In this document: one piece after another, positions 844 to 53,769 of the stretch | Numbering within the stretch: the first letter of the stretch is position 1 | How the letters are laid out: each line of letters begins with the position of its first letter | Source: Escherichia coli | Lineage (GTDB): Bacteria; Pseudomonadota; Gammaproteobacteria; Enterobacterales; Enterobacteriaceae | DNA length: 64,000 nucleotides | Reading direction: 5' to 3' (one strand) | Assembly: GCF_016903815.1 (NCBI RefSeq) | Contig: NZ_CP069973.1 | Translations under genes and position numbers: made by a program | Notes under the pieces: model-generated | What the model was told of the DNA's origin: nothing | Database searches by the model: none | What the model saw: the letters and a program-made list of their open reading frames with translations, nothing else

Positions 844-3734
<2,891 letters not shown>

Positions 3735-3761
3735 GTAACTACCGTCGCACGAACCAGGAAA

Positions 3762-3800
3762 GCCCGATAAGCGTTGCGCATCGGGCAATCTTGGGTTTGG
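3762..3800 (+). terminator. Candidate hairpin downstream of ascB (7-bp stem gcccgat/atcgggc)
   Basis: Inverted repeat 3762..3768 / 3780..3786 between convergent ascB and the antitoxin gene; weak T tract. Confidence 0.3.
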
Positions 3801-3812
3801 CATCAGTCAAAA

Positions 3813-4232
3813 TCAAAGAAACCATTCCGGCTTAACACCAAATCGGGCTGAAAGTGCCTTAATGTGGGATATCGTCAGGGATCGTTGCCCAGACAAAATC
3901 TGACTGACCAGGGATTTAGAGCCGATTTCGTTCTTCAAATCCGCGTAGGTCAGATTATGTTGATCAATCAGCGTACGAAGTAACGCCACGCCAACCGGCA
4001 TTGCTGCAACGGCTTTGTCGAACTCGGCAAACTTTTCGTTGTTGTTTTCATATTCTGCAATGCGGCTCGCCAGAAAGTCGATAAGTGGATTGGTGTCATC
4101 TTCTTCAATCAAATATTCGACCAGTTCCAGTGCTTCACGATAATCATCTTCTGAGTCACTACCTCCCAGAAAGGGGACTGCATTGACCAGTTCTCTTGTT
4201 GCTTTAACAGCGCGTGCAGCATTAGCAGTCAT
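3813..4232 (-). CDS. HigA-like antitoxin, XRE-family HTH
   Basis: 139-aa ORF; C-terminal HTH (EIGSKSLVSQILSGQRSLTISHIKALSARFGV) resembling E. coli HigA; overlaps upstream toxin gene by 4 bp. Confidence 0.75.
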   Translation of the reverse strand: MTANAARAVKATRELVNAVPFLGGSDSEDDYREALELVEYLIEEDDTNPLIDFLASRIAEYENNNEKFAEFDKAVAAMPVGVALLRTLIDQHNLTYADLKNEIGSKSLVSQILSGQRSLTISHIKALSARFGVKPEWFL

Positions 4233-4540
4233 TCTTTGTTCTCTCTGTAGTAACGTGTCAGTTTGTCATACTCTGCGTGATTCGTTATGTGCTTCACAAA
4301 GAACCGCTTATTAACAAAGTTTATGTAGGCAATAACCCTAAGATTGTTCCCGCCGACATCCAGAACGTACCATTTGTTGCGATATCTAAAATTGTCGAGG
4401 TTGGGAAACGCCGTTCGCATTTCTTCTGGTGTAGAAAAATCCGTTTCCTTAATAACCCGATACAATGAGTATAGAGCCAGAGCGTCGTTAGGATATTTGC
4501 GCGCACACTCTTCAAATGGCGCTTTCGAAATGATGTGCAT
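4229..4540 (-). CDS. HigB-like toxin (RelE/ParE superfamily mRNA interferase)
   Basis: 103-aa ORF resembling E. coli HigB (MH.I...A..D...KYP...FP.LDNF.Y....YV..VGGN.LRV.A...F......I....H.EYD); toxin-first order typical of higBA; AAGGAAG RBS. Confidence 0.75.
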   Translation of the reverse strand: MHIISKAPFEECARKYPNDALALYSLYRVIKETDFSTPEEMRTAFPNLDNFRYRNKWYVLDVGGNNLRVIAYINFVNKRFFVKHITNHAEYDKLTRYYRENKE

Positions 4541-4621
4541 TTTAACTTCCTTATTAGCGCCTGAATGACTAAACCTGGACTACCATTCCTTCGGATTTAT
4601 TTTCCTATAGTAGTTGATCAC

Positions 4622-4650
4622 ACGGGTGTTCACAATATGTAAACACCCGT
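4622..4650. promoter_or_regulatory. Perfect 9-bp inverted repeat ACGGGTGTT-N11-AACACCCGT upstream of the TA operon
   Basis: Palindrome seen directly, about 80 bp upstream of the toxin start, between hycI 3' end and toxin 5' end; candidate operator. Confidence 0.35.
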
Positions 4651-4706
4651 CTACACGTCACAATTGCACGTCCAAATTCCAAAACGTGAACATGTTTGTC
4701 TACGAA

Positions 4707-5177
4707 CTACTCTTCTTCCACCGCTAACTGCGCGAATCCGCCATTCCCTTCCCAGCCTTCCAGTCGTTGATAAACGGTTTCTACCGCATCTTTAATCGGC
4801 TGGGTCATCGGGTAGTAAAAGCCGACGATATCCGGCTGGATGCCGAGGAAAATCACTTCGCCAATGTCTTCTTTTAACTGGTCGATAAGGTAGTTCAACG
4901 GCATGTTATGGGTAGTCATCATAAACATCTCGGCGATATCATCCGGATCGATGATGCGGATCTCGCCGGGGTTTAGCCCCATATCCGTGGCGTCGACAAT
5001 CAGCAGTCGTGTCGGGCGCAGTTCGCGAATAGCGACAATGTCGTTTTCCGGTGCGCTACCGCCGTCAATCACCACCCAGTTACCTTTCGGCGCGGCGGCG
5101 CACTTTTCCGCCAGCAGCGGACCTGCGCCATCATCGCCCATCATGCTATTGCCAACACAGAGTAAAACGTCAGTCAC
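4707..5177 (-). CDS. hycI: Hydrogenase 3 maturation endopeptidase
   Basis: 156-aa ORF, last gene of hyc operon; matches recalled HycI. Confidence 0.9.
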   Translation of the reverse strand: MTDVLLCVGNSMMGDDGAGPLLAEKCAAAPKGNWVVIDGGSAPENDIVAIRELRPTRLLIVDATDMGLNPGEIRIIDPDDIAEMFMMTTHNMPLNYLIDQLKEDIGEVIFLGIQPDIVGFYYPMTQPIKDAVETVYQRLEGWEGNGGFAQLAVEEE

Positions 5178-5580
5178 GCAATCTCCTCACCATCAAATAG
5201 ATGGCGTTTTCCTGATGAATATCATGCAGCATACTTAACAGCATTGTACTCCATTCCTTCTGCTGCGAAGTTTGCGCAGCCCGGGCTTTATCGAATGCGT
5301 TGGCCAGCATCGGCACATGGTTAATGTCGATGACGATCTCACCATATTTCGGCACGCCTTCCATTTTGCGGCGGGCTTCGCTGCCCGCCTCCAGAGTGGC
5401 AATCCATGCCAGATATTCATCCCACGGACAGGTGAGCGCCGCTTCCAGGCAATCGATAACCCCAAGGTGGTGACCAATCGCCAGGCTGTAATAGACCACC
5501 TGCTGCGCCTCGGCGGGCGTGGCATCGTTCTCATCAATAAATTTACGGCTCAGTTGACTGAACACCACCTTTTCACTCAT
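5170..5580 (-). CDS. hycH: Formate hydrogenlyase maturation protein
   Basis: 136-aa ORF in hyc operon order. Confidence 0.85.
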
Positions 5581-6344
5581 CGGATACGCGCCTCTTCAAC
5601 AACATGATTCAGATGGCTGACAATCTCGTTCAGACGCGGATCGTTTTCCGCTTCCAGCCAGCGTGCAACCTGCTCTTCGCCCTGCCCTAACTGTGTCAGG
5701 AAGTCATCGGCAATCTGGCGACCGTAACGGTAACCCGCCAGGCGGCGAGCTTCGCGATCCACTTTCACGCGCAGCGGCTGCACCATATCGCCATGCAGGA
5801 TCTCCGCCGGTTGTTCATCCTGCTCACCCGGCCCACGGGCGTGAATTTTCTGCTCCAGCAGGCCGAGCGCCATTGCAAAGCCGTACAGCGTGGCGGCAGG
5901 CGTTGGCGGGCAGCCAGGGATATAAACATCCACCGGGACGATTTTATCCGTACCGCCCCACACGCAGTAGAGATCGTGGAAGATCCCGCCGCTGTTACCG
6001 CAGGCACCGTAGGAGATACAAATTTTCGGGTCCGGCGCGGACTGCCACGCACGCAGCGCAGGGGATCGCATTGCACGGGTGACCGCGCCGGTAAACAGTA
6101 AAATATCCGCATGACGCGGTGAAGGAACGACTTTAATGCCGAAGCGTTCTGCATCAAACAGCGGCGAAAGCGTGGCGAAAATTTCGATTTCGCAGCCGTT
6201 GCAGCCGCCGCAGTCCACGCGGTAAACGTAGGCAGAACGTTTGATTTTTTTCAGTAACGACGCCTTCATGCTGGCGATGGATTCATCCACCGTCATCGGG
6301 ACCGGAATGCCGTTGGCGTCACGGGGGCCTAATAAATTGCTCAT
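5577..6344 (-). CDS. hycG: Hydrogenase 3 small subunit (NuoB-like)
   Basis: 255-aa ORF with Cys-rich FeS motifs ([14 protein letters not shown]). Confidence 0.9.
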
Positions 6345-6886
6345 CAGATGGCCTCTTTCATATGGCGAGTCAGTTCAATACGGTCGGACGGCACCAGGCA
6401 TTTCTGGCGCTTACATTCCGGGCAAGTCTCAAAGCTTTCGCGGTGGTTTTCCGCGCGGCTGTCGCCGTTGTGCTTGAGCAGCGCAATGGCGTAGTCGATC
6501 TCTTTCTGGACGGCGAAAGGACGATTGCAGACGCGACAGTTGCACAGCGCGAAGCGGGACTGTTGCAGGAAGTCTTCTTTCTTCCACACCGCCAGTTCGT
6601 ACTCTTGCGACAGCTTAATCGCCGCCGTCGGGCAAACTTCTTCGCAGCGTCCACAGAAGATGCAGCGCCCGAGATTAAACTCCCAGGCAAGCTCTCCTGT
6701 GGCGAGGTCAGTTTCAACCGTTAAGGCGTTTGACGGGCAGGCATTGACGCAGGCCGCGCAGCCGATGCACTGCTGCGGGTTCTGCTCTGGCTTACCACGG
6801 AAGTTTTTATCAACCGCAATCGGCTCCAGCGGATAAGACGAGGTCGCCGTGCCGGTTTTGATAACTTTTTTGATAAAGGTAAACAT
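6344..6886 (-). CDS. hycF: Formate hydrogenlyase 4Fe-4S ferredoxin subunit
   Basis: 180-aa ORF with two CxxCxxCxxxCP motifs. Confidence 0.9.
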
Positions 6887-6895
6887 GGCGATTCC

Positions 6896-8605
6896 TTATT
6901 TCAGCGGCGAGTTTTTACGCTCAATGCTGTAACGCTCGAGTTCTTTGTACGGCACCACTTTGCTCTTCTTCTTACGCACATCGACCACGGTCATGCGGTC
7001 GGTACAGGAGTAGCAAGGGTCCAGGCTACCGATAATCAGCGGCGCATCGGAAACGGTGTTGCCGCGCAGCATGTAGCGCAGGGTCGGCCAGTTCGCGTAG
7101 GTCGCGGCACGGCAGCGCCAGCGGTACAGCTTCTGGTTGTCGCCGGTCATGCTCCAGTGGATATCGTCGCCGCGCGGCGCTTCGGCAAAGCCCAGCGCAA
7201 AACGGTGCGGAATATAGGTAAAGCCTTCCACCATCAGCGGACCGCCCGGCAGGTTATCCAGACCGTAGTCGATCATGTTCAGCGCGGTATAGACCTCGTT
7301 GATACGCACTTTCAGACGGGAAATAACGTCGCAGCCCTGCTCGCTGTGGACTTCCATTGGCAGCAGGCCATAACCAACAAACGGGTGATCGGCACGGGTA
7401 TCGCGGGCGTGACCGCTGGCGCGGACCATCGGGCCAACGTTACTGAAATCGCGGGCGATTTCCGGGTCCAGACGACCAATGCCGACAGTACGCTGTTCCA
7501 TGTTCGGTGTGCTCAGCAGCACATCCACCAGCTCCTGCACTTCACGACGCATCTGTTGCGCCAACTGGCGGGTCTGGATCATGTCATCTTTCAGCAGATC
7601 GCGACGAATTCCGCCGATCAGGTTCAGGCCGTAGGTTTTACGCGCACCGGTAAGGATCTCTGCCATTTTCATGGAGGTTTCACGCACGCGGAAGAACTGC
7701 ATAAAGCCGGAGTCGAAGCCGGTAAAGTGACTGGCGAGGCCGAGGTTGAGCAGATGCGAGTGCAGGCGTTCTACCTCCAGCAGAATGGCGCGGATCATCT
7801 GCGCACGTTCTGGCACCTGAATACCCATCGCGTTTTCCACCGACGTGGTGTAGGCGGTGCTGTGAGCAAAGCCGCAGATCCCGCACACACGGTCAGAGAG
7901 GAAGGTCACTTCGTTGTAACCCATGCGGGTTTCCGCCAGTTTTTCCATGCCGCGATGGACATAGAACAGGCGGTAGTCGGCGTCGATAATGTTTTCGCCA
8001 TCGACGAACAGACGGAAGTGACCCGGTTCGTCGGAAGTGACGTGCAGCGGACCAATCGGCACGACGTTGTTTTTCTTGTCGCCCAGTTCGTTGATGAACT
8101 CGTAGGTTTCAGCATCGGTAGTCGGTGCCGGACGTTGACGATAATCCATGCTGTCTTTACGCAGCGGATAAAGTTCATCCGGCCAGTCATCCGGCAGCAC
8201 CAGACGACGTTCATCCGGCAGCCCTACCGGAATCAAACCGTACATATCGCGCACTTCACGCTCGCCCCATACCGCCGCCGGAACGCGCGGCGTTACGGAC
8301 GGATATTCCGGTTTGTTGGCGTCAACTTCAACGCGCACGGTTATCCAGCATTTGGTGCCCTTCTCCATCGACAGCACGTAGTAAACGGCGTAATGACCAT
8401 TAAGTTTGCGTTCGTCGTTACCAAACAGCACCGACAGCCAGCCCCCCTGCTTGTAGTAGAGAAACTCCACCACTTCCGGCAGGTAGTTCACCTTCACGGT
8501 CACGGTCAGCTGATCTTTGGTCTGCCAGGCGTGGTCCAGCACGACGCCCGGAAATGCCTCATTCAGCGCAGCGAGATAATGTTGACCTAATTTTTCTTCA
8601 GACAT
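6896..8605 (-). CDS. hycE: Hydrogenase 3 large subunit
   Basis: 569 aa from MSEEKLGQHYL; NiFe-hydrogenase large-subunit motifs (RVCGICGFAH, C-terminal DPCYSCTDR); ORF-track start over-extended by 7 codons. Confidence 0.9.
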   Translation of the reverse strand: MSEEKLGQHYLAALNEAFPGVVLDHAWQTKDQLTVTVKVNYLPEVVEFLYYKQGGWLSVLFGNDERKLNGHYAVYYVLSMEKGTKCWITVRVEVDANKPEYPSVTPRVPAAVWGEREVRDMYGLIPVGLPDERRLVLPDDWPDELYPLRKDSMDYRQRPAPTTDAETYEFINELGDKKNNVVPIGPLHVTSDEPGHFRLFVDGENIIDADYRLFYVHRGMEKLAETRMGYNEVTFLSDRVCGICGFAHSTAYTTSVENAMGIQVPERAQMIRAILLEVERLHSHLLNLGLASHFTGFDSGFMQFFRVRETSMKMAEILTGARKTYGLNLIGGIRRDLLKDDMIQTRQLAQQMRREVQELVDVLLSTPNMEQRTVGIGRLDPEIARDFSNVGPMVRASGHARDTRADHPFVGYGLLPMEVHSEQGCDVISRLKVRINEVYTALNMIDYGLDNLPGGPLMVEGFTYIPHRFALGFAEAPRGDDIHWSMTGDNQKLYRWRCRAATYANWPTLRYMLRGNTVSDAPLIIGSLDPCYSCTDRMTVVDVRKKKSKVVPYKELERYSIERKNSPLK

Positions 8606-8622
8606 GCTCAAACTCTCTTTAA

Positions 8623-9546
8623 TCACGCCGCCAGCAAGGAGACGAACGCTAAAAATGCAAAGCCAAACCCAGCCCAGGTAATGCGCGGAGTAATATCAAG
8701 ACGCAGACGGGCCATGCTGTTTTCGAACAGCGCGATAACCAGGACGCCAACCACCAGTTTGACGATGGCAATCACCAGCGCCAGCAGCAGCCCACCGACG
8801 GTGAAGGTTTCCATTTGTCCCCACGGAATAAACACCCCGACGAACATCTGCAACACCACCAGCTGTTTCAGGCTGATACCCCATTTCATGACGCCAAAGC
8901 CGCTGCCGCTATACTCAGAGAGCGGACCTTCCTGCAACTCCTGCTCGGCTTCCGCCAGGTCGAACGGCAGTTTGCCCATTTCGATAAAGGTGGCGAATGC
9001 ACAGGCACAAAGCGCCAGCACCAGCGGAATGCTCTGGCTCAGCGGCCAGTGATAAACGGTGTCGGTGATGTTGCTGATGTTGGTGGAACCGGCAACCTGT
9101 GCGGCGACCCACAGACCAAGCAGCAGCATCGGTTCAACCAGCACGCCAAGCATCGCTTCACGGCTCGCGCCGATAGCGGTAAACGGGCTACCGGTATCCA
9201 GACCAGAAATGGCAAAGAAGAAACGCGCGATGGCAAAGAGATACAGTAAAGTGATCAAATCGCCCAGCTGCGGCAGCGGAGAACCAACGGTCACCACCGG
9301 CAGCGCAGTAGCGATAGTCAGCATGACGCCCACCATCACATACGGCGTCAGGCGGAACACCCAGCCGGAGGCATCCGGGCCAACGCTCTGGCGACCCAGC
9401 AGTTTGATAATGTCGCGATACTCCTGCAACACGCCCGGCCCGCGACGGTTATGCAAGCGGGCGCGCGCCACGCGGGTTATACCGGAGAGCAGCGGCGCAA
9501 CGGCAAATAACACCAGCGCCTGAATTAACGGATATAAAACACTCAT
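8623..9546 (-). CDS. hycD: Formate hydrogenlyase membrane subunit (NuoH-like)
   Basis: 307-aa hydrophobic ORF in hyc order. Confidence 0.9.
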   Translation of the reverse strand: MSVLYPLIQALVLFAVAPLLSGITRVARARLHNRRGPGVLQEYRDIIKLLGRQSVGPDASGWVFRLTPYVMVGVMLTIATALPVVTVGSPLPQLGDLITLLYLFAIARFFFAISGLDTGSPFTAIGASREAMLGVLVEPMLLLGLWVAAQVAGSTNISNITDTVYHWPLSQSIPLVLALCACAFATFIEMGKLPFDLAEAEQELQEGPLSEYSGSGFGVMKWGISLKQLVVLQMFVGVFIPWGQMETFTVGGLLLALVIAIVKLVVGVLVIALFENSMARLRLDITPRITWAGFGFAFLAFVSLLAA

Positions 9547-9548
9547 TC

Positions 9549-11375
9549 TCAGGCTCCTCGTGAAACAATAATCACCACCAGCACCGCCAGTTCAACCAGC
9601 GCCATCCGGCGGAACAGCAACGCACTGCCTTCGCACTGCCAGCCCGGCACCAGCGACACCGGATTCAGCCATTTGCGCAGTTTCAGCACTGGCGCAAACG
9701 CCTGTTTCACCGGCATGGCAAAACCGTGAGCGGTAATCACCATTGATTTTTCGTGGTCGTAGCCGCACACCCAGGCCGCGCCGCGGGAACGCGACGGCAA
9801 ACGGTCGCCTTTGCAAATCGCCATAATGATGAATGGCAGCAGCGGGCAGGCAATCAGCAGCAACGTGATCATGGGTTGAGAAACGGTGGTGTTAGCAGGC
9901 TCCAGCGGCAGAGGTACAGCAGCAGAGAGCATCGGCAGCAGCCACGGCGCAGCAACACCGCCAATTACGCAGCAAATCGCCAGTGCCACTACGCTTACGC
10001 TCATCAGGAGCGGCGCACAGGTGGCGTTTTCGGCTTCTTTGGTACGCGGCGCGCCGAGGAACGTGACGCCATAGACTTTCGCCATACACATCACCGCTAG
10101 CGCACCGGTAATTGCCAGACCCACTGCGAGCAGCGGCCCCAGCAGACGGGCAACAAACGCGCCACTATTGCTCAGTTTGAAGAAGGATTGATAGATAACC
10201 CATTCCCCGGCAAACCCGTTCAGCGGCGGCAACGCAGCCATTGCCATCAGCCCAACTAACATGGCGATGGAGATAACCGGCATTTTCTTGCCAATACCAC
10301 CGAGTTTTTCGATATCGCGATGACCGGTACGGAACCAGACGCTCCCCGCCCCGAGGAAAAGTACGCTTTTGAACAGGCTATGGTTAAGCAGATGGTACAG
10401 ACCACCGACCAGGCCAAGAGCAATCAGCGCCGGTTGTTCGAGCGCGATACCCGTTACGCCAGCGCCCAGCCCCAGCAGGATAATGCCGATATTTTCCAGG
10501 GTGTGGTAAGCCAGCAGGCGCTGGATGTTGTGTTCCATCAACGCATACAGACCACCGACGAACGCGGTGATCATGCCGAGCACCAGCAGCGCGATTCCCC
10601 ACCACAGCGGTGCATTACCGCCCAGCAGTGACAGGGTTAAAATGCCCAGCAGGCCAATTTTCATGACTACCGTGGAAAACAACGCGGCAGCTGGCGCAGA
10701 GGCGTTAGCATGTGCCTGCGGCACCCAGCCGTGCAGCGGAATAATCCCGGCCAGCAGGCCAAAGCCAATCACACCGAGCAGCCAGATATCGGAACCGAGC
10801 GGCAGCTGTTGCATACGCATATCCAGCAGGCGCAGATCCAGCGTGCCGTAACGCTGCCACAGCAGCCAGCAAGCAATCGCCAGCAGCAGAGTGCCAAGAC
10901 GCCCCAGTGCAAACCACAGTTTGCCCTCTTTGCTGTTGTTGGTGAGGAACACCGCGCACAAGGCCATGATTTCTGCCATTACCACGAACATACCGAGGTT
11001 GCTGGCGATGACAGCACAGACGGCAGCAGCCATCAACATATTGATCTGCAAGCCGTTGCACTTCACCTGCGCGTGGCGATGCCAGTCAATGTTGTAGAGG
11101 CTGACAAACAGACCGCACAGGCCGAGCGTAATCAGCCAAATCGCGTTAAGCGGAGAGATTTGCACATCGTAGCTTACTAGCGACAGCGCACCGCTCACGC
11201 CAACCGCGCCAGTCAGTACAGTGAAGCCCGCGGCTGCCGTATACAGACTACCCACCGCGCCGCCAATTCCGGCTATCCAGCCGCTTAGCGCCTTTTGAAA
11301 AGAAAAGAGAAATGCCAGAACAGCGGCGGCGACAAACCACGCCACGCCGCTATTGATCAGGGAAATTGCGCTCAT
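9549..11375 (-). CDS. hycC: Formate hydrogenlyase membrane subunit (NuoL/antiporter-like)
   Basis: 608-aa polytopic membrane ORF. Confidence 0.9.
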   Translation of the reverse strand: MSAISLINSGVAWFVAAAVLAFLFSFQKALSGWIAGIGGAVGSLYTAAAGFTVLTGAVGVSGALSLVSYDVQISPLNAIWLITLGLCGLFVSLYNIDWHRHAQVKCNGLQINMLMAAAVCAVIASNLGMFVVMAEIMALCAVFLTNNSKEGKLWFALGRLGTLLLAIACWLLWQRYGTLDLRLLDMRMQQLPLGSDIWLLGVIGFGLLAGIIPLHGWVPQAHANASAPAAALFSTVVMKIGLLGILTLSLLGGNAPLWWGIALLVLGMITAFVGGLYALMEHNIQRLLAYHTLENIGIILLGLGAGVTGIALEQPALIALGLVGGLYHLLNHSLFKSVLFLGAGSVWFRTGHRDIEKLGGIGKKMPVISIAMLVGLMAMAALPPLNGFAGEWVIYQSFFKLSNSGAFVARLLGPLLAVGLAITGALAVMCMAKVYGVTFLGAPRTKEAENATCAPLLMSVSVVALAICCVIGGVAAPWLLPMLSAAVPLPLEPANTTVSQPMITLLLIACPLLPFIIMAICKGDRLPSRSRGAAWVCGYDHEKSMVITAHGFAMPVKQAFAPVLKLRKWLNPVSLVPGWQCEGSALLFRRMALVELAVLVVIIVSRGA

Positions 11376-11983
11376 TTAGCCTCTCCACTTTGAGCCTGCT
11401 GAAACAAGGTGAGATCGCCAAAGTCCGTGTTAAAGGTCAGCTCACGCTTACGTTTGCTGACGCGGGCGATATCGGTGTTATCCACCAGATGCAGGGCTTT
11501 AGTCGGGCACATCCGCACGCAGGCCGGACCTTGTTCATCAAAGCTACAAAGGTCACATTTGACGGCGATCGCGCGAATACCTGGCACCCAGTCAAGCAAT
11601 GTGCTGACACGCGCCGGAGCAGGCGGTGCCGGTGGCGCTTTCGGGGTATTGGCGTTTGCCGGAATATCCAGCGGACGGCTGCCGGAAAATTCAATTGCGC
11701 CAAACGGGCAGGCGATGCCGCACAGTTTGCAGCTTACGCACAGGCTTTCATTCAACTGCACGGCCCCATCAACGCGGGTGATGGCGTTAACCGGGCAGAC
11801 CACCGCACAGGGCGCATCTTCACAGTGGTGACAGAGCTGCGGCGCAGATTCTTTTTCATTGAGCATCACTCGCAGGCGCGGCATTGATTGCAGGCCGTGC
11901 TGGCGATGCGTCTCTGAACAGGCGGCCTCACAGGTGTGGCAGCCGATACAGAGCGTGGAGTCAGCAATTACAAAACGATTCAC
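11372..11983 (-). CDS. hycB: Formate hydrogenlyase FeS subunit
   Basis: 203-aa ORF with four CxxCxxCxxxCP clusters. Confidence 0.9.
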   Translation of the reverse strand: MNRFVIADSTLCIGCHTCEAACSETHRQHGLQSMPRLRVMLNEKESAPQLCHHCEDAPCAVVCPVNAITRVDGAVQLNESLCVSCKLCGIACPFGAIEFSGSRPLDIPANANTPKAPPAPPAPARVSTLLDWVPGIRAIAVKCDLCSFDEQGPACVRMCPTKALHLVDNTDIARVSKRKRELTFNTDFGDLTLFQQAQSGEAK

Positions 11984-43155: not shown

Positions 43156-43187
43156 CAAGTGATGTCCATCATCGCATCCAGTGCGTC

Positions 43188-43765
43188 CGGTTTATCCCCG
43201 CTGACGCGGGGAACACGTCAATAGGCGGCGTCCCGTAGCCGTCCCCTTCGGTTTATCCCCGCTGGCGCGGGGAACACGTTGAGGTCGATAAGTACGAACG
43301 GTTTCCCTGCGGTTTATCCCCGCTGGCGCGGGGAACACGATCGCCTGCTCCAGCGTCACTCCCTGCCCCTCGATTTATCCCCGCTGGCGCGGGGAACACT
43401 TCTGATACGTACTGAGGCCGGTTGTGATACGCGATTTATCCCCGCTGGCGCGGGGAACACTAACCCCCAATGAAGTTAATAAAGTCTATGGCCGATTTAT
43501 CCCCGCTGGCGCGGGGAACACATGAGATTAAAATACTCAGTACTCTTACTCGCCGATTTATCCCCGCTGGCGCGGGGAACACCAGCGTGGCGCGATAAAG
43601 CAATGTGTCTGGCTCGATTTATCCCCGCTGGCGCGGGGAACACCAGAGGCAACCGACGCGGATTCAGTAGGAAAGCGATTTATCCCCGCTGGCGCGGGGA
43701 ACACCGATAGACACTTTGCGGTCATTGTCTATTCGGCGATTTATCCCCGCTGGCGCGGGGAACAC
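43188..43765 (-). CRISPR. Type I-E CRISPR array: 10 repeats of 29 bp, 9 spacers of 32 bp
   Basis: Repeats start at 43188, 43249, 43310, 43371, 43432, 43493, 43554, 43615, 43676, 43737 (61-bp period); plus-strand consensus CGGTTTATCCCCGCTGGCGCGGGGAACAC; repeat 1 is degenerate (GCTGACGCG); repeats 4-10 carry CGATTT variant. Confidence 0.97.
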
Positions 43766-43861
43766 ACTAAGCATACATAACTGTTTTTAAACAAATTTAT
43801 TCCGCATCAACAATCTACCAACTAAATTAAAACATTTCCTTATTTTTAAAGAACAGATAAC
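43766..43861 (-). promoter_or_regulatory. AT-rich CRISPR leader between array and cas2
   Basis: About 95 bp AT-rich sequence adjacent to the non-degenerate repeat end. Confidence 0.75.
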
Positions 43862-45071
<1,210 letters not shown>

Positions 45072-45075
<4 letters not shown>

Positions 45076-45722
45076 GCCTCTGCTCCGGGTTTGATCAGCA
45101 TCAGACCACAGCCGAACGCGCGGCTTTTGCCATACCCCTGGCTCAGACGTTGCAGAAATAACCCAGGATCGGTGACCGTAAGCATCCCCGTATAATCCAC
45201 GCTACTGAACTGGATCAGTTGCCGGGAGTTTTCCCGCCGCAGTTGCTGTTGTCGGTAGGCATCGACCGAGGTATCCAGTAGTGTAAAACCGCTTCTTTCC
45301 CCCTGCGCTGCCAGCCAGTCCAGCGCCGCCTGTTGTTGATGCAACCAGACATCACTTCCTTCCACCTGCCCCCTCACCTGCCGTTTCGCCTCCATCAGCA
45401 AGTCGTGGCGTTTGCCCGCTTTACAAATTGTTGGATTCGCCCGCAGGTTGAAACAAAGGGATTGTCCGGTACGCAACTCTGGCGCAAATGGTCGGCATTC
45501 GATGGTGAAAATATCACTTTCCGCCGGGCGTTCCTGCGACAGGACAAAAAAGCGAAACGCCCCCTGGAGTTCTTCCCGACGATAAAGAAATTGCCTTTCT
45601 TTGCCGCCAGGAAAAAGATCCCACAGCCACTGATGCATTACATATTCACCGCGACCCACCAAATGCAGCAACTGCGCAGGCAAAAGCTGGCCGGTATGTA
45701 AGGTTATTCTTGAGAGGTACAT
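45072..45722 (-). CDS. cas6e: Cas6e (CasE) pre-crRNA endoribonuclease
   Basis: About 216 aa from MYLSRITL; ORF-track N-terminal extension overlaps cas5e and is rejected. Confidence 0.85.
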
Positions 45723-46450
45723 GGTTCCTCCTTGCTGAGCCACGGCCCCTGATTGATGGTGCGTTCCCCAAACAGCCACTGCTGACGATTTAAAGGAACA
45801 TCCCGGCGACGTAATATTTTGCTCGCGACCAGGCCGTCGTGTTCCCCTTCCCACCAGCATTCATCCTGAAGTTTCGGGAGTGAGACTTTCAGTTCGCGGA
45901 AACTATCCTGATACTGTTGGTATGCGTTACGTAAGACATCAGACGCGTTGCCTTCGAGCAGTAACGGCGCAAGTGGTAACGCCAGCGGATGACTTTTTCG
46001 CCCCAGATAAAGCGGAAAAACCGGATGACGTAAACCGTCCTGCAACTGTTCAAGCCTGTAAGACGCATCGGGGGTTGTTGCCACCGCCACCATCCACCAG
46101 GCATCGGTGTAGTAGTCGCGCCGGGAGATAATCGCGCTCAGAAGATCAGGGGCGCTCAACTCTTCGCGACGGCTGAAATAACGCGCTTTACGCACCTCTT
46201 TTGGCATCTGGACCGTGTGATAATCCCGTGCCCAGCGCGGGTTACGGCTGGCGCAAACCACCAGTGAATAGTGGCGGTTAAACGCGTTTAATCGTTCGGT
46301 ATCATCACGCCGAATCCCTACCCCGGCAGCCAGCAGCCCCAGCAATGCTGAGCGCGAAGGCAGTTCATGGGTATGACGCACTTCGCCGGGGGCATCGACG
46401 CCCCAGGATGCCATTGGCCCATGAAGCTGAAAAATCAAATATTGGCTCAT
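45704..46450 (-). CDS. cas5: Cas5e (CasD) Cascade subunit
   Basis: 248 aa; MSQYLIFQLHGPMASWG matches Cas5e N-terminal motif; GGGGCGG RBS. Confidence 0.85.
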   Translation of the reverse strand: MSQYLIFQLHGPMASWGVDAPGEVRHTHELPSRSALLGLLAAGVGIRRDDTERLNAFNRHYSLVVCASRNPRWARDYHTVQMPKEVRKARYFSRREELSAPDLLSAIISRRDYYTDAWWMVAVATTPDASYRLEQLQDGLRHPVFPLYLGRKSHPLALPLAPLLLEGNASDVLRNAYQQYQDSFRELKVSLPKLQDECWWEGEHDGLVASKILRRRDVPLNRQQWLFGERTINQGPWLSKEEPCTSQE

Positions 46451-46460
46451 TAGCCGCCCC

Positions 46461-47516
46461 TTACGCGCAGATAAAGTCCAGCACGTCCTTCATGCTTCCC
46501 TGTTTGTTCATCACGTCAAAGCTTACGCATTCGGTCTTCTGTTCATAGACCGTATTCATATTTTCGCGAAGCGTTGTAATACGCTGCACCGCCACATCTA
46601 ACTGCCGGGTGCCATTAATGGGTTCATAGAAAGCCGCCGCCAGAGAGCGTGGTTGTTCAGTGCCTTTTTCTGCCAGCGCCCAGGAGGCGTAGGCACGGCT
46701 GGCAAAGCTGTTCTGTTTGCCGGTTGGGGAGACTTTAAGTGCGGCTTCCGTAAAGGCGCGCAAGGTCTGATTAGCTAACGCTTCGTCACCGCCGAGGTTT
46801 TCGACCAGCAGATCTTTATCGATGCAGATATAGGTGTAGAACAGCGCAGAACCGAATCCGGTTTCACCAAGATGCCCGGCACCGGCATCTTCAGAAGCCT
46901 GGCGCAAATCATCAACGGCGGTGAAAAAATCATCTTCGACAATCGTTTCACTGACACCAAATGCATGCGCGACCTGGCAGGCGGCTTCAACATTAAATTC
47001 GGGTTTATTCGCCAGCATACGACCAAACATAGCGATATCTACCGCCATGCGATCTTTACGTAACAAAGCGAGATCTTCCTCTTTTGGCGCGCGCTTTTCT
47101 TCGGCCAGTTGATGGGCCAGCGCTTTTACGGCGTCAAATTCTGCCGGGCTGATATGGACTAGCTGTTCAGTTTCGGCGTTAGTGAGCGGATCTTTTGGTT
47201 TTTTGTCGTTTTTAGCTTTCCCAAGATAATCCGCAATTTTTGCCGCCCATTCGATGGCTTTTTTCTCTTCGATGCCTTTCTCAATCAGGATAGTTGCCGC
47301 CTCACGCGCAATACGCCCACTGCGAATACCAATATGGCCCGCCAGTGCCTGTTCAAAAAGTGCAGAAGTGCGCCACGCACGTTTCAGACTTTGTGAGGAA
47401 ACGCGCAGACGCGTTGCTCCACCCAGTACCACAGTTTTTGGCGCACCGGTGTCATCACGGTTAAGGTTGGCAGCAGGGTAAGCGGTTAACAAATGAAGCT
47501 GAATAAATGTCGTCAT
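46461..47516 (-). CDS. cas7: Cas7e (CasC) Cascade backbone subunit
   Basis: 351 aa; N-terminal IQLHLLTAYPAANLNRDD resembles K-12 CasC. Confidence 0.85.
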   Translation of the reverse strand: MTTFIQLHLLTAYPAANLNRDDTGAPKTVVLGGATRLRVSSQSLKRAWRTSALFEQALAGHIGIRSGRIAREAATILIEKGIEEKKAIEWAAKIADYLGKAKNDKKPKDPLTNAETEQLVHISPAEFDAVKALAHQLAEEKRAPKEEDLALLRKDRMAVDIAMFGRMLANKPEFNVEAACQVAHAFGVSETIVEDDFFTAVDDLRQASEDAGAGHLGETGFGSALFYTYICIDKDLLVENLGGDEALANQTLRAFTEAALKVSPTGKQNSFASRAYASWALAEKGTEQPRSLAAAFYEPINGTRQLDVAVQRITTLRENMNTVYEQKTECVSFDVMNKQGSMKDVLDFICA

Positions 47517-47530
47517 GAGATAGTCCTTTA

Positions 47531-48067
47531 TTAATTTTGTTCGTTATCGGCGTCGCCAGCCTGGTAATATTCCAGCGCCCAGCGGATACGGATAAATTCT
47601 GTTGGCCGCTGCTGGCGGCGGTGATGATTGAGCAGGTCGTCGCTCTCCTGGCACCAGCGGAAAATATCTTCTGCCAAAGAGATAAGATTGACGGAACCAT
47701 TTAATAATTTGACCGCGCGACGTAACTGACGCAGTAAATCATCAGGCGTTTTTACTGCCGACAGGCGAGTAAAACGCCCCTCCGACATTACCGCCGCCAG
47801 CTGCGCGGCAAAAGGCTGCCGTTCATCAATAGCTTTAACATTGGCGCTAACTGCGGCGACCAGCGCCAGTGCGGTAAAACGCCACTCTTGTGCTTCAATT
47901 TTCCACAAAGTGTGGGTCTGCATCAGCAGAGAACGAAACCCTTCTGACAGACAAACATCATTAACCGTTGTGCTACGCCGCAGACTGGCACGATTGCCGC
48001 GTTTTTCCTGCAACTCTTCGTGCCATTTACGCAGCGTGGCTTTGTGCTCCTCTTTTACAATACTCAT
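47531..48067 (-). CDS. cse2: Cse2 (CasB) Cascade small subunit
   Basis: 178-aa basic alpha-helical ORF between cse1 and cas7. Confidence 0.8.
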   Translation of the reverse strand: MSIVKEEHKATLRKWHEELQEKRGNRASLRRSTTVNDVCLSEGFRSLLMQTHTLWKIEAQEWRFTALALVAAVSANVKAIDERQPFAAQLAAVMSEGRFTRLSAVKTPDDLLRQLRRAVKLLNGSVNLISLAEDIFRWCQESDDLLNHHRRQQRPTEFIRIRWALEYYQAGDADNEQN

Positions 48068-49626
48068 TCAGCAGCCTCCTGCTTTTTCTCCCTGGCGGCT
48101 TTAGCATTTTGCTTCTCCGCCGATGTTGTAAAATATTTCTTGCGCGCGGTCATGACGCGTTTCAAATCAACGGGCTCATATGGATTGGTGAAGACACGCT
48201 CGTCAAAATCCTGACGCGCGAATAACCAAATTTCCTTTTGCCATTTGCTGAGTAATTCATCCGCATCCTGACCTTCTTCAATGTGGCGCACTAACCTCAG
48301 GAAGCGATGCTGAGTTTTGTTCCAGAAGTCGATATCCACAAAACTGAAATCACCCCGTGCACCTTTTGGATCGGAGAACCACGCTTCTTTCAATGCACTC
48401 CGTAACAGACTCAGAATCCGTGAAGCCGTTTGCGCAGCCAGCCGCAGCTTCGGTATCTGGCCTTCTTTTTTATCGAGCAGCAGCGGAAAATGGTGTTCGT
48501 ACCAACAGCGCGCTTTCATGTTGTCAAAATCATAACCAAATCCCCACAGGCCCACTTTTGCCTGCTTGAGACTGCTGGCATTAAAGAGTTTCACCACCAG
48601 CGCGGGAAGTTCCGTATTGTTTTCTGATTTACCCGTTTCGATAAGGCCTAACCAGTCGCGCCAGATTAAACCGCCTGGTTGTGGTTTGACCGAGTAAAAC
48701 TCGCCGCCCTCTTTAAGGGGTACACGGTAAGGCGTTAAGGGATGCTGCCACATGGCATAATTCGCGCCGTAATTTTTGGTCGTCATCAGGCTCAGGAGCG
48801 CGTCGTTCTGCTCGCCGCAAATATCGCAGTTGCCGACTGTCGTGGTATTAAAATCAATACGAATACGCCGCGGCATTCCCCAGTACGCCTGGAGTTTATT
48901 AACCTGATCATCGGTTACCACCGCACCGGCCAGTTCGCTGGTACGCGTCGGGCCAAGCCAGGGGAAAACCAGATCGTCAAATTTTTTGGGTAGCGGTAAG
49001 TCGGCTTCGTCCTGCGGCATCACATTGAGCCACAGTTTGCGCCACAAGGGCGTTTGTTGATTGCCCTGATATTCCTGTAATTCAATCAGAGTGGTCATCG
49101 GCCCACCGCCGCGTAAACCGGTGCGGTAGCCTTTACCACCTGACGGCGCATTTAACTGTAGGGAGAACAGAGCTAACGCAGAACAATGTGGGCACAGGTA
49201 TTCCGTTACACCACGCTTGATAAAGTGGTCTTTATTAAACTTCGTTGTTTGAGCGCCGGGAATCTCAGGCAGTAGCGAAGCGACCTGAACTTTATCTCCT
49301 GTGAGCGCCTCGAAATCCTGCATAAATGAAGGGGAATCTGGCCCAAACTGGAAAGCGTGTTCTAAGGACAGCAATGCTTCCCGTAGCTTTTCAGATTCCA
49401 GTCCGTCTTCCCAGATATCATCCCAACGACGATGATCTTTTGGCGCAAAGCTGGTTTGTAGTAGCCCCAGCAAAAACTGCCATGCCGCTCCCTGGAGATC
49501 TGCCCGTGGCGCAGCAATATCGACAACATTTTCATCCGCCAGATCGACAGGCGCCAGTTTGCCTGTCGTTCCGTCTTTATAACGAACGGGCAACCACGGG
49601 GTTGTCAGAAGTGAAAACGAGTTCAT
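48064..49626 (-). CDS. cse1: Cse1 (CasA) Cascade large subunit
   Basis: About 520 aa from MNSFSLLTTPWLPV; start chosen 6 nt after GAGG (ORF track begins 49695). Confidence 0.8.
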   Translation of the reverse strand: MNSFSLLTTPWLPVRYKDGTTGKLAPVDLADENVVDIAAPRADLQGAAWQFLLGLLQTSFAPKDHRRWDDIWEDGLESEKLREALLSLEHAFQFGPDSPSFMQDFEALTGDKVQVASLLPEIPGAQTTKFNKDHFIKRGVTEYLCPHCSALALFSLQLNAPSGGKGYRTGLRGGGPMTTLIELQEYQGNQQTPLWRKLWLNVMPQDEADLPLPKKFDDLVFPWLGPTRTSELAGAVVTDDQVNKLQAYWGMPRRIRIDFNTTTVGNCDICGEQNDALLSLMTTKNYGANYAMWQHPLTPYRVPLKEGGEFYSVKPQPGGLIWRDWLGLIETGKSENNTELPALVVKLFNASSLKQAKVGLWGFGYDFDNMKARCWYEHHFPLLLDKKEGQIPKLRLAAQTASRILSLLRSALKEAWFSDPKGARGDFSFVDIDFWNKTQHRFLRLVRHIEEGQDADELLSKWQKEIWLFARQDFDERVFTNPYEPVDLKRVMTARKKYFTTSAEKQNAKAAREKKQEAAE

Positions 49627-49723
49627 ACGCATCCTCTCGTAAAAAAGACCATCCCAGGTCGGTTGTCCATCATTCCATCCTTTTCGGTGTATCAACTATT
49701 CAGAGAGCCCTGTCGCAGGCATC

Positions 49724-52423
49724 TCAACCAACCTTGCCAGTCAATCCTTCCATAGCCGAATACCCGCAACTTTCGTCATCGGTAACTAAAATCACGTTTG
49801 CCATCTCCGGATCTTTCCGCTGTTCAATGCACCACTGCCTGAACGCTTCCCCTTCCAGTAAAGAAAACTCATCCCGATGTTTTTTCCACCAGCTTCGACG
49901 CACTCTGACAACGCTCATTTCCCATGCGTGAGCACCGTTGGCATAAGGCTTCACCACACTGGCAATACAGGTAGCCAGCCACAGGGAAACAGACTCCTCC
50001 GCCAGACGTGTCGACAGCTTTTCCGGAAGGTAATCGTTGATATTGGCGGCATAGCCAGGCCTGAAGTTCAGCACAAACTTTTTAGCCATTGCGCGATCGC
50101 AGTAATATTTGCCCACTTGCTCCTGCTCGCTGCGGGCAAATCCTTCCGGCATTACCACGTCCTCACCGTAGACTGATTCAATAAGAAGGCGGGCTGCGTG
50201 TGGCATTTGAATAGCGCCTTGCTCACGCAGTACACGCTGCGTCAGCCAGATTCGTCCATGATCGGGATAGACATATGCACTGTTACGCATGGCACTGCCG
50301 AACCATTCGTCACCTGGAGCGTCGTCCCAGACGGGGGCCAGAATCAGCAATTCAGGAGGGGAACGCTCGTCTTTTCCGTCACGCTTTAACTGACCATTAA
50401 TATCGCGGATATGCCGCTGTAATCGCCCCGCTCGCTGGATCAGCAAATCAACAGGGGCCAGGTCGGAAATCATTTCGTCCATATCGCAATCAACGCTCGA
50501 CTCTAAGACCTGAGTACAAATGAGGACTTTTCCGGCACGCTGTGAGCTATCTTCTTTACCGAAGCGTGCCAGCGTTTCCGTTTCAATTCGCTGGCGATCG
50601 CTAAAAGCAAAGCGGCTATGAAACAGAGAAAGGCTGGAAGCAGGAATGACGCCGCGGGCAAGCAACTGACGATAAACCTTAATAGCGTCATCGACAGAAT
50701 TCCGGATCCAGGCGATGCATTTCCCCTGACTTACTGCCGATTCGATACGCGCAATACATTCTTGTTCGCTATGAAGCCAACCCACGCTCACGCTACGCTC
50801 AACGTCTTTGCGCGTCGCTACCCGGTGTGAATGCACATCGGATTTCGTAACGTGCGTCAGCCAGGGGTAATCATCCTTTTCCAGGAACGGAGCTTCTTGC
50901 TGGCCCTCTGTACCACGCGCAAAGGCAGCAACGAGTTTGTCGCACTGCTGTTGAGATAACGTGGCAGAAAGCAAAATGACGCTGTTTCCGCCACGCGCCT
51001 GCCGCTCGATCAGCCCTTCAAGAATGCATGACATGTAAGCGTCACAGGCATGGATCTCATCAGCCAGCAGGATTTTGTTACTCAGTCCCAGAAGCCGCAG
51101 ATTATTATGTTTGAACGGCATCACAGCCATCATCGCCTGATCCAGCGTGCCGACGCCAATTTCAGCCAGTAGCGCCTTCTTGTTACTGTCGGCAAACCAG
51201 GCCGCACATCCCTGACTGAACGTTTGTTCATCCGGTTCTTCTGACCCGACTAAATCACCGGACCAGAGTGATTCATTAAAGCGGTCCATTAATGTTCGGG
51301 CACTGTGTGCCAGCACCAGGCTGGGGCGGGACTCTGGCGAATAGAAAGCAAGCCAGGTTTTGACCAGTCGATCGTACATGGCATTGGCCGTTGCCATTGT
51401 TGGCAGGCCAAAAAACAAACCCTGCGCTTTACCCGCAGCCATCAACCTGTGCGCCAGGATAAGCGCCGCTTCCGTTTTACCTGCGCCAGTCACATCTTCC
51501 AGAATAAATAACTGTGGCCCTGGCTGGCTGATATCCAGATCCAGCACCTTTTGCTGTAACGGTGTCGGATTCTCAATAAAAGGAAACAGCGTATTAATTC
51601 CGGTGAAAGGCGCGACTTTTGCTTTTAGAGGAAAGACGGTTAAGGCGTTTTGAGCCTGAACTAAAGTTTTCTGCCAGTAACCTTTAATATCCATTGGGTG
51701 TGCGACGCGTGGAAAAAATCGCGTTGACGAACCCGTCCAGTCTGCGAGCACGACGGTTGCAGAGATATACCAGGAAAGGTGTTTTATAAGTTCAATGCCC
51801 TCATCATCATCCCAGAATGCGGGGATCTCTATGAGCGGAAACAGTGGTTTGATTTCAAGAAGAAAATCTCGCGCGGCAGCTTTGTCTTCAGGCAGAAAAT
51901 TATCCAGTTCATCAATACGGTCAGGCGGGCGACCATGATGCCCGGTAGTTATGGGCATCCACATCTCCATCACCCGTTTAAGTTTGCGCGGAGAGAGTGA
52001 AGATGAAGGAAGCAATTCTTCGTATTCACTTAAATAATGATGCCACAGCCAGTAGCCCAGCGTTGAATGAGAGATCTTTTCGTAATTCTTTCTTGCGCCT
52101 TCCGGAACCTTGAGTTGTGGGTGCAGGTAAAGTTGCTGAAAAGAGCGGGCAAATTTTCCAGTATCGTGCCAGCACAATAGCCAGGCGAAAAATTGTGCTG
52201 CCTGCTCCGTATCAGCGAAACCTAGTTGACGAAAATAGTCAGTCAGCCCGAAGCAATTGCTTTTAACCATTAAATAGCCCATCGCGGCTACATCCAGCGA
52301 ATGCCAGCAAAGAAGGTGATAGTCGTCGCCCCCGTCTTTCTCGCCGCGTCGGGTTTTTCCCCAGAAATCAAAAAAAGTCACAATATTTTTATCCTTCAGT
52401 AAACTTAAAGGATATTTACGCAT
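49724..52423 (-). CDS. cas3: Cas3 HD nuclease / SF2 helicase
   Basis: 899 aa; N-terminal HD domain, Walker A (DVTGAGKTEAA), DEAH-like box (LADEIHACD). Confidence 0.9.
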   Translation of the reverse strand: MRKYPLSLLKDKNIVTFFDFWGKTRRGEKDGGDDYHLLCWHSLDVAAMGYLMVKSNCFGLTDYFRQLGFADTEQAAQFFAWLLCWHDTGKFARSFQQLYLHPQLKVPEGARKNYEKISHSTLGYWLWHHYLSEYEELLPSSSLSPRKLKRVMEMWMPITTGHHGRPPDRIDELDNFLPEDKAAARDFLLEIKPLFPLIEIPAFWDDDEGIELIKHLSWYISATVVLADWTGSSTRFFPRVAHPMDIKGYWQKTLVQAQNALTVFPLKAKVAPFTGINTLFPFIENPTPLQQKVLDLDISQPGPQLFILEDVTGAGKTEAALILAHRLMAAGKAQGLFFGLPTMATANAMYDRLVKTWLAFYSPESRPSLVLAHSARTLMDRFNESLWSGDLVGSEEPDEQTFSQGCAAWFADSNKKALLAEIGVGTLDQAMMAVMPFKHNNLRLLGLSNKILLADEIHACDAYMSCILEGLIERQARGGNSVILLSATLSQQQCDKLVAAFARGTEGQQEAPFLEKDDYPWLTHVTKSDVHSHRVATRKDVERSVSVGWLHSEQECIARIESAVSQGKCIAWIRNSVDDAIKVYRQLLARGVIPASSLSLFHSRFAFSDRQRIETETLARFGKEDSSQRAGKVLICTQVLESSVDCDMDEMISDLAPVDLLIQRAGRLQRHIRDINGQLKRDGKDERSPPELLILAPVWDDAPGDEWFGSAMRNSAYVYPDHGRIWLTQRVLREQGAIQMPHAARLLIESVYGEDVVMPEGFARSEQEQVGKYYCDRAMAKKFVLNFRPGYAANINDYLPEKLSTRLAEESVSLWLATCIASVVKPYANGAHAWEMSVVRVRRSWWKKHRDEFSLLEGEAFRQWCIEQRKDPEMANVILVTDDESCGYSAMEGLTGKVG

Positions 52424-52560
52424 ATATTAAAAATTATCTGTGATATATATCGTTCAATAAAATATTTACATTATGAATAATCAAATAATTTTCATCCGTA
52501 ATATATATGAATAATAAACATAGGCATAATATTCACATAAACAATATAAATTAAAAAAGG
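52424..52560. promoter_or_regulatory. Strongly AT-rich cas3 upstream region (candidate promoter / H-NS target)
   Basis: About 135 bp of A/T-rich sequence with repeated ATATAT and TAAATA tracts immediately 5' of cas3. Confidence 0.5.
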
Positions 52561-52590
52561 GTGCAGGAGACCAAACCATCACAATTCAAT

Positions 52591-52613
52591 ACGCGGGGTT
52601 TTACCCCCGCGTG
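52591..52613 (-). terminator. Hairpin immediately 3' of hok-like ORF (cgcgggg-loop-ccccgcg)
   Basis: Inverted repeat seen directly; on minus strand followed by TATTGAATTG. Confidence 0.4.
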
Positions 52614-52617
52614 GTGG

Positions 52618-52770
52618 CTACTTCTTCGATTCGTAAGCGAGAACTGCCTTAAACTCCATACCACGTTCTCTGATACTCAACTCACACAACGAGTCGCCTA
52701 CCATCAGCGTGAATCCCAGTACTGTACAACACAGTACGATGATTGCCACAAGGGCATATTTTGTCAGCAT
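52618..52770 (-). CDS. Hok/Gef-family type I toxin (small membrane peptide)
   Basis: Hand-translated 50-aa [53 protein letters not shown]; GGGAGG RBS; Hok signature (TM helix, LCE, AYES); below ORF-track length cutoff. Confidence 0.75.
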
Positions 52771-52985
52771 GTCTTGCCTCCCTGCAAAGAAGAGACTAAC
52801 ATTCGAATTGCTTAGGTTCGAACGCTGGCCTCAGGTTGATAGAAATATCGCCTGGGGCTTTTGTCCATCTGGAACCTCGCGAATGCTTAACGCCAGACAG
52901 CCTCAAGCACCCAACGCCATTCTATACCTGATAATTCTTCCAGCGGCGTTCACGTTTAAAATCAGGAATGCTGCTCGCAAAATAA

Positions 52986-53017
52986 AAACGCCCCCATCAT
53001 TTCTGACAGAGGCGTTT
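52986..53017 (-). terminator. Candidate cysH terminator hairpin
   Basis: aaacgcc...ggcgttt stem with large loop, followed on minus strand by TTTTATT; weak. Confidence 0.3.
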
Positions 53018-53034
53018 AATTTATCCGGCAATAT

Positions 53035-53769
53035 TTACCCTTCGTGTAACCCACATTCTCTTTTTAAGCCAAAGAAACGCGTTTCTTCTTCCGCCATGCC
53101 GGGTTCCCATTTACGGGTTGTATGGGTATCACCGACCGATAAATATCCTTCATCCCATAATGGGTGATATTTCAGGCCATGTTTTTGCAGGTACTGATAA
53201 ATAGTTCGGTTATCCCAGTCGATAATCGGCAGCACTTTAAATACGCCACGCTGAATTGCCAGCACCGGTAAATTGGTGCGGCTGCCGGATTGTTCACGGC
53301 GCAGGCCAGCAAACCAGGTTTGCGCATTCAGTTCTTTCAGCGCCCGGTTCATCGGTTCGACTTTGTTGATGTCATTGTACTTTTCAATGCCTTCAACACC
53401 CTGCTCCCACAGTTTTCCGTAACGTGCTTCCTGCCAGGCGGCGCTTTCGGTAGCGCGGTACACTTTCAGGTTGAGCTTGAGTTTGTCCGTTAACTCGTCA
53501 ATAAAGCGGTAGGTTTCCGGGAACAAGTAACCCGTATCGGTGAGGATCACTGGAATATCCGGGCGAATCTGATTCACCAGATGCAGGCTCACCGCCGCCT
53601 GAATGCCGAAACTGGAAGAAAGTACATATTCACCGGGCAGATTATCCAGCGCCCAGGCAACGCGGCCTTCAGCGTCCAGTTTTTCCAGTTCGGCGTTAGT
53701 TTCTGCCAGCGCCAGAATGCGATCTACCTTCGGCAGTTCGTTCAGGGCGTTTAGATCGAGTTTGGACAT
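53035..53769 (-). CDS. cysH: Phosphoadenosine phosphosulfate (PAPS) reductase
   Basis: 244 aa from [12 protein letters not shown]; C-terminal ECGLH motif; ORF-track start over-extended through REP. Confidence 0.9.

Follow-up and report, generated by a model that had tools for sequence, protein, structure and literature searches.

Regulation of CRISPR-Cas in Escherichia coli has been studied almost wholly in K-12, whose cas cassette is a minority variant. Pul 2010 and Westra 2010, as cited in PMC4782391 and PMC3903273, report both the K-12 casA–cas3 region and the K-12 CRISPR leader as silenced by H-NS, and the silencing of Pcas is reportedly relieved by LeuO. Deletion of hns raises K-12 cas3 mRNA about 8-fold in stationary phase (PMC4782391), and in exponential phase a reporter for the K-12 cas3 promoter depends on H-NS only slightly (PMC7019758). 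A 2025 survey (PMC12736100) describes two I-E variants and the adjoining of hok/sokX to cysH. According to PMC3903273, an intergenic unit named IG4 is invariably linked to the cas-E1 variant and is absent from cas-less and E2 strains, and every strain but the E2 ones, which have the K-12-type cassette, carries hok/sok regardless of cas status.

Here we analyse an extremely AT-rich block upstream of cas3 in a window of 64,000 nt (the whole stretch of DNA that was examined) from E. coli contig NZ_CP069973.1. The gene order, all on the minus strand, is cysJ, cysI, cysH (down to 53035, with a terminator 3′ of it at 53017–52986), hok/sok, the AT-rich block and cas3, followed by cse1, cse2, cas7, cas5, cas6e, cas1, cas2, a 10-repeat CRISPR array and iap; the locus is thus E. 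coli CRISPR-I (iap–cysH). The cas3E1-R primer of PMC3903273 matches 52323–52342, and the window therefore carries the non-K-12, O157:H7-type ‘cas-E1’ variant. The cas3-E1 gene itself (49724..52381, minus strand; annotated start 52423) encodes an HD nuclease and helicase, as judged by RefSeq and by NCBIfam matches to cas3_core (218 bits) and cas3_HD (88.7 bits). In our reading the block is rather probably the promoter and leader of cas3-E1, possibly of a whole cas3-to-cas2 operon, and a likely target of H-NS.

Composition and boundaries of the block

The first-pass annotation had described about 135 bp of AT-rich DNA, rich in A/T runs and repeats and in sharp GC contrast to its surroundings, between the cas3 start and a hok-like locus, and this description holds. 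The GC fraction of 52424–52560 (137 nt) is 0.168, as compared to 0.529 for the window (16.8% vs 52.9%), ATATATAT runs are found at ~52443–52450 and ~52500–52508, TpA steps number 18.2 per 100 bp as compared to 4.0 in the window, and the flanks are the annotated cas3 ATG at 52423 and an Rfam-backed hok/sok locus. No other 137-bp span in the window has a lower GC content; just five of the ~63,900 sliding positions are equally AT-rich, and all five overlap 52424–52560, so that its AT-richness is far beyond chance. Internal repetition is limited to weak palindromes and two direct repeats of 15 and 13 nt, each present twice, which is consistent with low-complexity AT DNA.

The sole further span with GC ≤0.30 in the 137-nt sliding scan of the window is the CRISPR leader (43753–43915). 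The E1-type CRISPR2.1 leader (43767..43861, minus strand, GC 0.253) lies beside the CRISPR2.1 array, which has ten 29-nt repeats at a spacing of 61 nt (43183–43766). Ranked by AT-richness, 43767–43915 comes second in the window (minimum GC 0.27) and corresponds to this leader.

The edges of the block are set by its neighbours. The maximal AT-rich segment spans 52365–52558 and extends leftward into the annotated cas3 ORF, across the 42 nt that separate the ATG from a GTG at 52381. At the right edge of 52424–52560, AAAAAAGG is part of hok rather than of the block: AAAAAA(GG) at 52552–52560, the last 6–9 bases of the interval, corresponds to the U-run and fbi end of the hok mRNA. Given the hok U-run on the right and the GTG start on the left, we take the cas-E1-specific AT-rich non-coding region to be 52382–52551 on the minus strand (170 bp, GC 0.18).

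On the hok side of this boundary, loci of the hok/sok type, here hokX-sokX, are type I toxin-antitoxin systems. Rfam family sok (RF01794) matches at 52912–52755 (111.7 bits, E 2e-26), and a 50-aa Hok ORF lies at 52770–52618, which RefSeq annotates as a Hok/Gef family protein and which matches NCBIfam HokA/Hok below the curated cut-offs. The predicted RNA fold of 52915–52546 (−128.9 kcal/mol, z = −3.6) pairs the 5′ GGGUGC...GAGGC (tac) with the 3′ GGUCUCCUGCACCC (fbi) just before a U6 run; as modelled, this is the tac–fbi long-range pairing typical of hok mRNAs. With the U-run at 52557–52552, the pairing places the end of the hok transcript at about 52552–52557 and the predicted hokX mRNA at 52552..52912 on the minus strand, and the block thus lies outside the hok mRNA, the Sok RNA and their promoters.

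Distribution, homology limits and conservation

To place the block among E. coli strains we surveyed 5426 complete genomes. A 751-bp query spanning the region finds matches in 5425 of them and is matched over at least 80% of its length in 2237, and the block alone (52382–52551) is present in 2697, about half. All 2697 carriers have it in single copy, in the chromosome and under or beside an annotated Cas3, and no genome among the 5426 holds a second copy. The block is missing from cas-less, K-12-type and third-variant loci, and homology to the window stops at a different point in each kind of strain: at 52552 in a cas-less strain that has iap directly against hok, and likewise at 52552 in a strain carrying a third cas variant; at 52596 in strain C1, which has an IS421 insertion; and at 52768 in K-12, in which hok is deleted and a sokX remnant is left. 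The break exactly at 52552 identifies the block as DNA of the cas cassette, not of hok.

The survey reproduces the E1 linkage of IG4, and, as far as can be gathered from the text of Almendros et al. 2014, the block is probably IG4. It has thus already been catalogued as a structural unit, and the feature, while real, is ordinary.

Two haplotype classes are apparent among the carriers: 1004 genomes match the window at ≥95% identity, and another 1664 do so at 80–90%; the latter class is of the O157:H7/A19 type, and across ten aligned loci the two differ chiefly in the distal, hok-side half. A mobile-element origin of the block was considered and rejected, as there are no genuine plasmid copies: three of the four ‘plasmid’ matches are mislabelled chromosomes of 4.8–4.9 Mb. 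The fourth, NZ_MN732922.1 (245 kb), is filed as a conjugative E. coli plasmid and carries the block and its flanks at 169006–169265 with 89.7% identity; it is perhaps a piece of chromosome carried by an F-prime-like element, or a mislabelled record.

Insertion sequences were seen near the hok end. In strain C1, the IS421 homology limit at 52596 falls in the GC-rich hok 3′ hairpin CGCGGGG..CCCCGCG. The IS1A of strain JMK_KBN3987 was considered as a possible insertion in the AT-rich block; coordinate arithmetic from the annotation puts it at ~52592–52601 instead, in or near the same hairpin. Both elements separate hok from the block and cas3, and ~52592–52601 may be an insertion hot spot.

The third type I-E variant in the iap–cysH locus is that of strain 2017-19-1CC (NZ_AP027854.1, 2015–12004 of the extracted locus). 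Its cas3 is divergent from casA over a 610-bp intergenic region, with its convergent end against hok; its Cas3 is 45% identical to the E1 protein and 31% to that of K-12, and the final 135 bp upstream of its cas3 have a GC content of 0.27.

Conservation was assessed in an alignment of ten loci (seven E. coli E1 alleles, a divergent E. coli-like genome, Escherichia sp. MOD1-EC7003 and Pseudocitrobacter), and a second alignment also takes in E. albertii and two Citrobacter loci. Mean pairwise identity over the ten loci (the seven E. coli in brackets) is 0.97 (0.98) in the hok 3′ end (52640–52552), drops to 0.70 (0.85) in the distal half of the block (52551–52491), and then climbs toward cas3, to 0.86 (0.91) in the proximal half or conserved core (52490–52424) and 0.95 (0.99) between the annotated ATG and the GTG (52423–52382), the best-conserved segment of the block; all four intervals are read on the minus strand. 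The proximal part and the leader are conserved into Pseudocitrobacter and a divergent Escherichia species. In Escherichia sp. MOD1-EC7003 a deletion of ~47 nt removes mostly distal sequence and reaches a few bases into the proximal half. As aligned, the distal half behaves as a fast-evolving AT-rich spacer with two haplotypes and indels.

Proposed promoter, leader and start codon of cas3-E1

The start codon of cas3-E1 bears on how much of the AT-rich segment is coding. The annotated codons 1–14 (52382..52423, minus strand) are, on indels and conservation, probably a 5′ untranslated leader. In four of the ten aligned loci an extra T (TTTAAGTTTTAC) throws ATG 52423 out of frame and into a TAA stop, and in E. 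albertii and both Citrobacter loci this ATG is missing. GTG 52381, on the other hand, is invariant in all aligned loci of three genera. It is preceded by a Shine-Dalgarno-like GAAGGA at 52397–52392, which is invariant in E. coli-type loci; E. albertii and Citrobacter have other purine-rich, Shine-Dalgarno-like sequences there. Initiation at the GTG would yield the N-terminus MTFFDFWGK and a protein of the same length class as Cas3 of K-12 (MEPFKYICHYWGK) and of the third variant (MTTSILPDYLRYWGK). The extra-T allele appears to be rare in E. coli proper, at least on the SNP background of the query: an exact 72-nt query carrying it finds no E. coli genome at ≥99%, as compared to 947 for the window’s allele. 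Most E. coli could thus use either start, and the case for the GTG leans mainly on the cross-species comparison. We nevertheless judge that GTG 52381, rather than ATG 52423, is probably the true start. One practical consequence concerns strain 2014C-3338, whose cas3 is labelled ‘frameshifted’ by PGAP and in which the sole indel in 311 aligned nt is the 1-nt indel of the leader: a cas3 that RefSeq calls frameshifted may be intact in at least one strain, if this indel is its only defect.

No non-coding DNA other than the block lies directly 5′ of cas3 in the same orientation; on the minus strand the block adjoins the cas3 start, and the hok mRNA upstream of it ends at 52552. Since the block also travels with the cas3 variant and is conserved in its proximal half, it probably contains the cas3 promoter, as had been proposed at first pass. 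Pinpointing that promoter is another matter. A strict scan finds no consensus promoter inside the block. A home-made position weight matrix built from classical hexamer frequencies gives moderate sites on both strands (best scores 8.3–9.7), of which the best in the conserved core (8.3, minus strand) combines a −35 TTTATT (52461–52456) and a −10 GATAAT (52438–52433) over a 17-nt spacer. Sites scoring ≥8 are ~12 times denser in the block than in the whole window, which is what 82% AT predicts, and so sequence alone cannot name the promoter.

How far transcription from the block would reach is suggested by the layout of the cassette. The cas3–cse1 junction (49627..49723, minus strand) is 97 bp long with GC 0.495, has no AT-rich region of the promoter type, and contains no minus-strand consensus promoter and no convincing terminator. 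The K-12 cas3–casA junction, by comparison, is 414 bp with GC 0.295 and is the known Pcas region. The AT-rich non-coding tracts of the E1 cassette are the block and the CRISPR leader only. Given the lack of AT-rich DNA between cas3 and cse1, a promoter in the block would probably drive cas3 and possibly the whole cas3-to-cas2 string, and the arrangement suggests a single cas3-to-cas2 transcription unit in E1. The K-12 Pcas/IGLB region has no counterpart in E1. Furthermore, the two cassettes differ in overall composition: E1 cas genes have a GC content of 0.52 (0.49–0.55 per gene; 43862–52381) and K-12 cas genes of 0.448 (3174–11824 of the K-12 locus), so that the E1 cassette, its two AT-rich control regions aside, looks far less foreign than that of K-12.

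Could the block instead be passive DNA, an AT-rich leftover at the cassette edge with no regulatory role, with cas3 transcripts arising by read-through from hokX or cysH, or at a promoter within the annotated ORF? It does sit exactly at the boundary of an exchangeable module, its distal half is variable and indel-prone, and the strict scan came up empty; in addition, our scan calls no intrinsic terminator at the hok 3′ end, which makes some read-through conceivable. However, the proximal 67 bp and the 42-nt leader, at identities of 0.86–0.99, are conserved far above the distal half, and the cassette offers no other non-coding DNA able to host a cas3 promoter. AT-rich DNA also recurs 5′ of cas3 in unrelated genomic contexts, with 135-bp GC minima of 0.17–0.29 in Escherichia, Pseudocitrobacter, Citrobacter, Dickeya, Serratia, Erwinia, Pantoea and Mixta; among the relatives compared, Pectobacterium has no AT-rich DNA upstream of cas3. 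On this evidence we consider passive junction DNA unlikely.

Slightly less likely still is a promoter that is active and mainly under the control of an activator such as CRP, rather than silenced by H-NS. A CRP-like site with one perfect half, TGTGA-N6-TCGTT, is found in the conserved core at 52439–52454, and in K-12 CRP activates the cas3 promoter, the effect of hns deletion being slight (PMC7019758). Against this, the regions upstream of cas3 in K-12 and E1 share no homology, and a tract of 82% AT would probably not evade H-NS in vivo. We rejected the CRP site as a candidate, since matches with ≤3 mismatches occur in the window at or below chance (177 found vs 210 expected).

We thus favour a cas3 promoter kept quiet by H-NS, which could operate as follows. 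The block begins right after the 3′ end of the hokX mRNA (52552) and runs to the cas3 start, its distal part being a variable spacer of extreme AT and TpA content. The proximal part, ~52382–52490, would hold a weak sigma-70-type promoter and a short leader whose Shine-Dalgarno sequence directs initiation at GTG 52381. From this promoter cas3 would be transcribed, and possibly cas3-cse1-cse2-cas7-cas5-cas6e-cas1-cas2 in full. H-NS, together with StpA, would coat the block and occlude RNA polymerase, keeping the system quiet in the manner shown for the non-homologous cas and CRISPR promoters of K-12. In this account the block's position and composition, its linkage to cas3-E1, the gradient of conservation and the hok boundary are observed, and the promoter, the extent of the operon, the GTG start and H-NS binding are inferred.

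Proposed H-NS silencing and comparison with known systems

H-NS reportedly prefers AT-rich, TpA-containing DNA, and the block has this composition to an extreme degree (GC 0.18 vs 0.53 and TpA 18.2 vs 4.0 per 100 bp in the window). It is more extreme than either of the silenced K-12 regions, the casA–cas3 intergenic region having GC 0.295 and 11.6 TpA per 100 bp and the CRISPR leader GC 0.267 and 10.5. The block is therefore, judged by its composition, likely to be bound by H-NS. Two other sequence indicators count against binding. The 10-bp motif TCGATAAATT is said to be a high-affinity H-NS site; it is absent from the block at ≤1 mismatch, the nearest sequence being CGATATATAT on the minus strand. 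With 10 matches in the window vs 4.3 expected the search is not informative, and the motif is not obligatory for H-NS binding. Curvature, put forward at first pass as a check, turned out to be unremarkable (end-to-end/contour ratio 0.971, 53rd percentile of the window in a wedge model), an estimate to which we give low weight. As the K-12 region is not homologous to the block, the analogy with K-12 cuts both ways, and our literature search returned no H-NS, ChIP, promoter, reporter or start-site data for the E1 variant. Given the host-like GC content of the E1 cas genes (0.52), spreading of H-NS would be confined to the block, and any filament would be short.

The first-pass annotation had gone further and suggested that cas3 and hok may share their silencing, which would require H-NS to nucleate in the block, spread both ways and repress cas3 as well as hok/sok. 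H-NS is known to spread from nucleation sites, the two genes are adjacent, and hok, co-directional with cas3, ends ~130–170 bp upstream of it. This part of the proposal did not survive, and we regard a shared silencing domain as improbable. The hok locus is like bulk DNA in composition (GC 0.49, 4.9 TpA per 100 bp), and the hok and sok promoters lie 350–500 bp from the block. An identical Hok (WP_000956458.1) is kept in cas-less, third-variant and IS421-separated strains that have no adjacent block, and the hok 3′ region is nearly invariant in strains lacking one. The independence of hok/sok from cas status outside K-12-type strains, as given in PMC3903273, argues in the same direction, as does the detection of SokX RNA under all tested conditions in K-12, which is without the block (bioRxiv 2024.06.20.599902).

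It is very improbable that the block encodes a product of its own, be it a small RNA or a small protein, or fires an antisense promoter toward the hok 3′ end. Plus-strand promoter-like sites do reach similar scores, but at this base composition such matches are to be expected on either strand. The block is also overlapped by two ORFs, 33 and 37 aa long, which span the indel-rich distal half as well as the hok 3′ end; the alignment does not preserve them. An Rfam scan of 52200–53100 yields sok and sub-threshold cysH-terminator matches only, with no family inside the block.

More speculatively, hok and cas3, being co-directional, may be linked by transcriptional read-through. It is a rather doubtful extension of this idea that the 170-bp region is the only entry point for all eight E1 cas genes, supplemented by hokX read-through into cas3. 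If true, Cas3, Cascade and Cas1-Cas2 would be switched as one unit, unlike the split regulation of K-12; the hokX mRNA, constitutive and with a weak long-range terminator, would supply an H-NS-independent trickle into cas3; and a toxin-antitoxin transcript would be coupled to basal CRISPR immunity.

Returning to the H-NS-silenced cas3 promoter that we favour, it would concern a variant found in roughly one of every two complete E. coli genomes, O157:H7 included. If the block is a single H-NS-gated switch for the system, its deletion or a promoter swap would provide a simple way to probe whether E1 systems are truly silent in nature.

The K-12 Pcas/IGLB and CRISPR leader are, like the block, AT-rich non-coding DNA fronting type I-E cas genes at the same chromosomal locus. 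Pcas/IGLB has no sequence homology to the E1 block and is positioned differently, between cas3 and casA, whereas the block lies upstream of cas3 and is the more AT-rich of the two (GC 0.18 vs 0.295). The H-NS and LeuO binding that has been shown is that of K-12. In position, the block corresponds rather to the K-12 cas3 promoter region, which likewise lies directly 5′ of cas3 on the cysH side; that region is ~84 bp long with GC 0.36, is unrelated in sequence, and abuts the sokX remnant because hok is deleted there. The E1 block directly adjoins hok/sok (hokX-sokX), and conserved hok sequence stops at 52552. The E1 layout thus differs from that of K-12: cse1 is not preceded by a large AT-rich region, and a single extreme block lies in front of cas3. 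Finally, IG4, as described in the text of PMC3903273, has the same E1 linkage and the same absences as the block and occupies the cas3–cysH interval beside hok/sok; in that text it serves as a marker for the exchange of modules and is given no function, whereas we propose for it a regulatory role.
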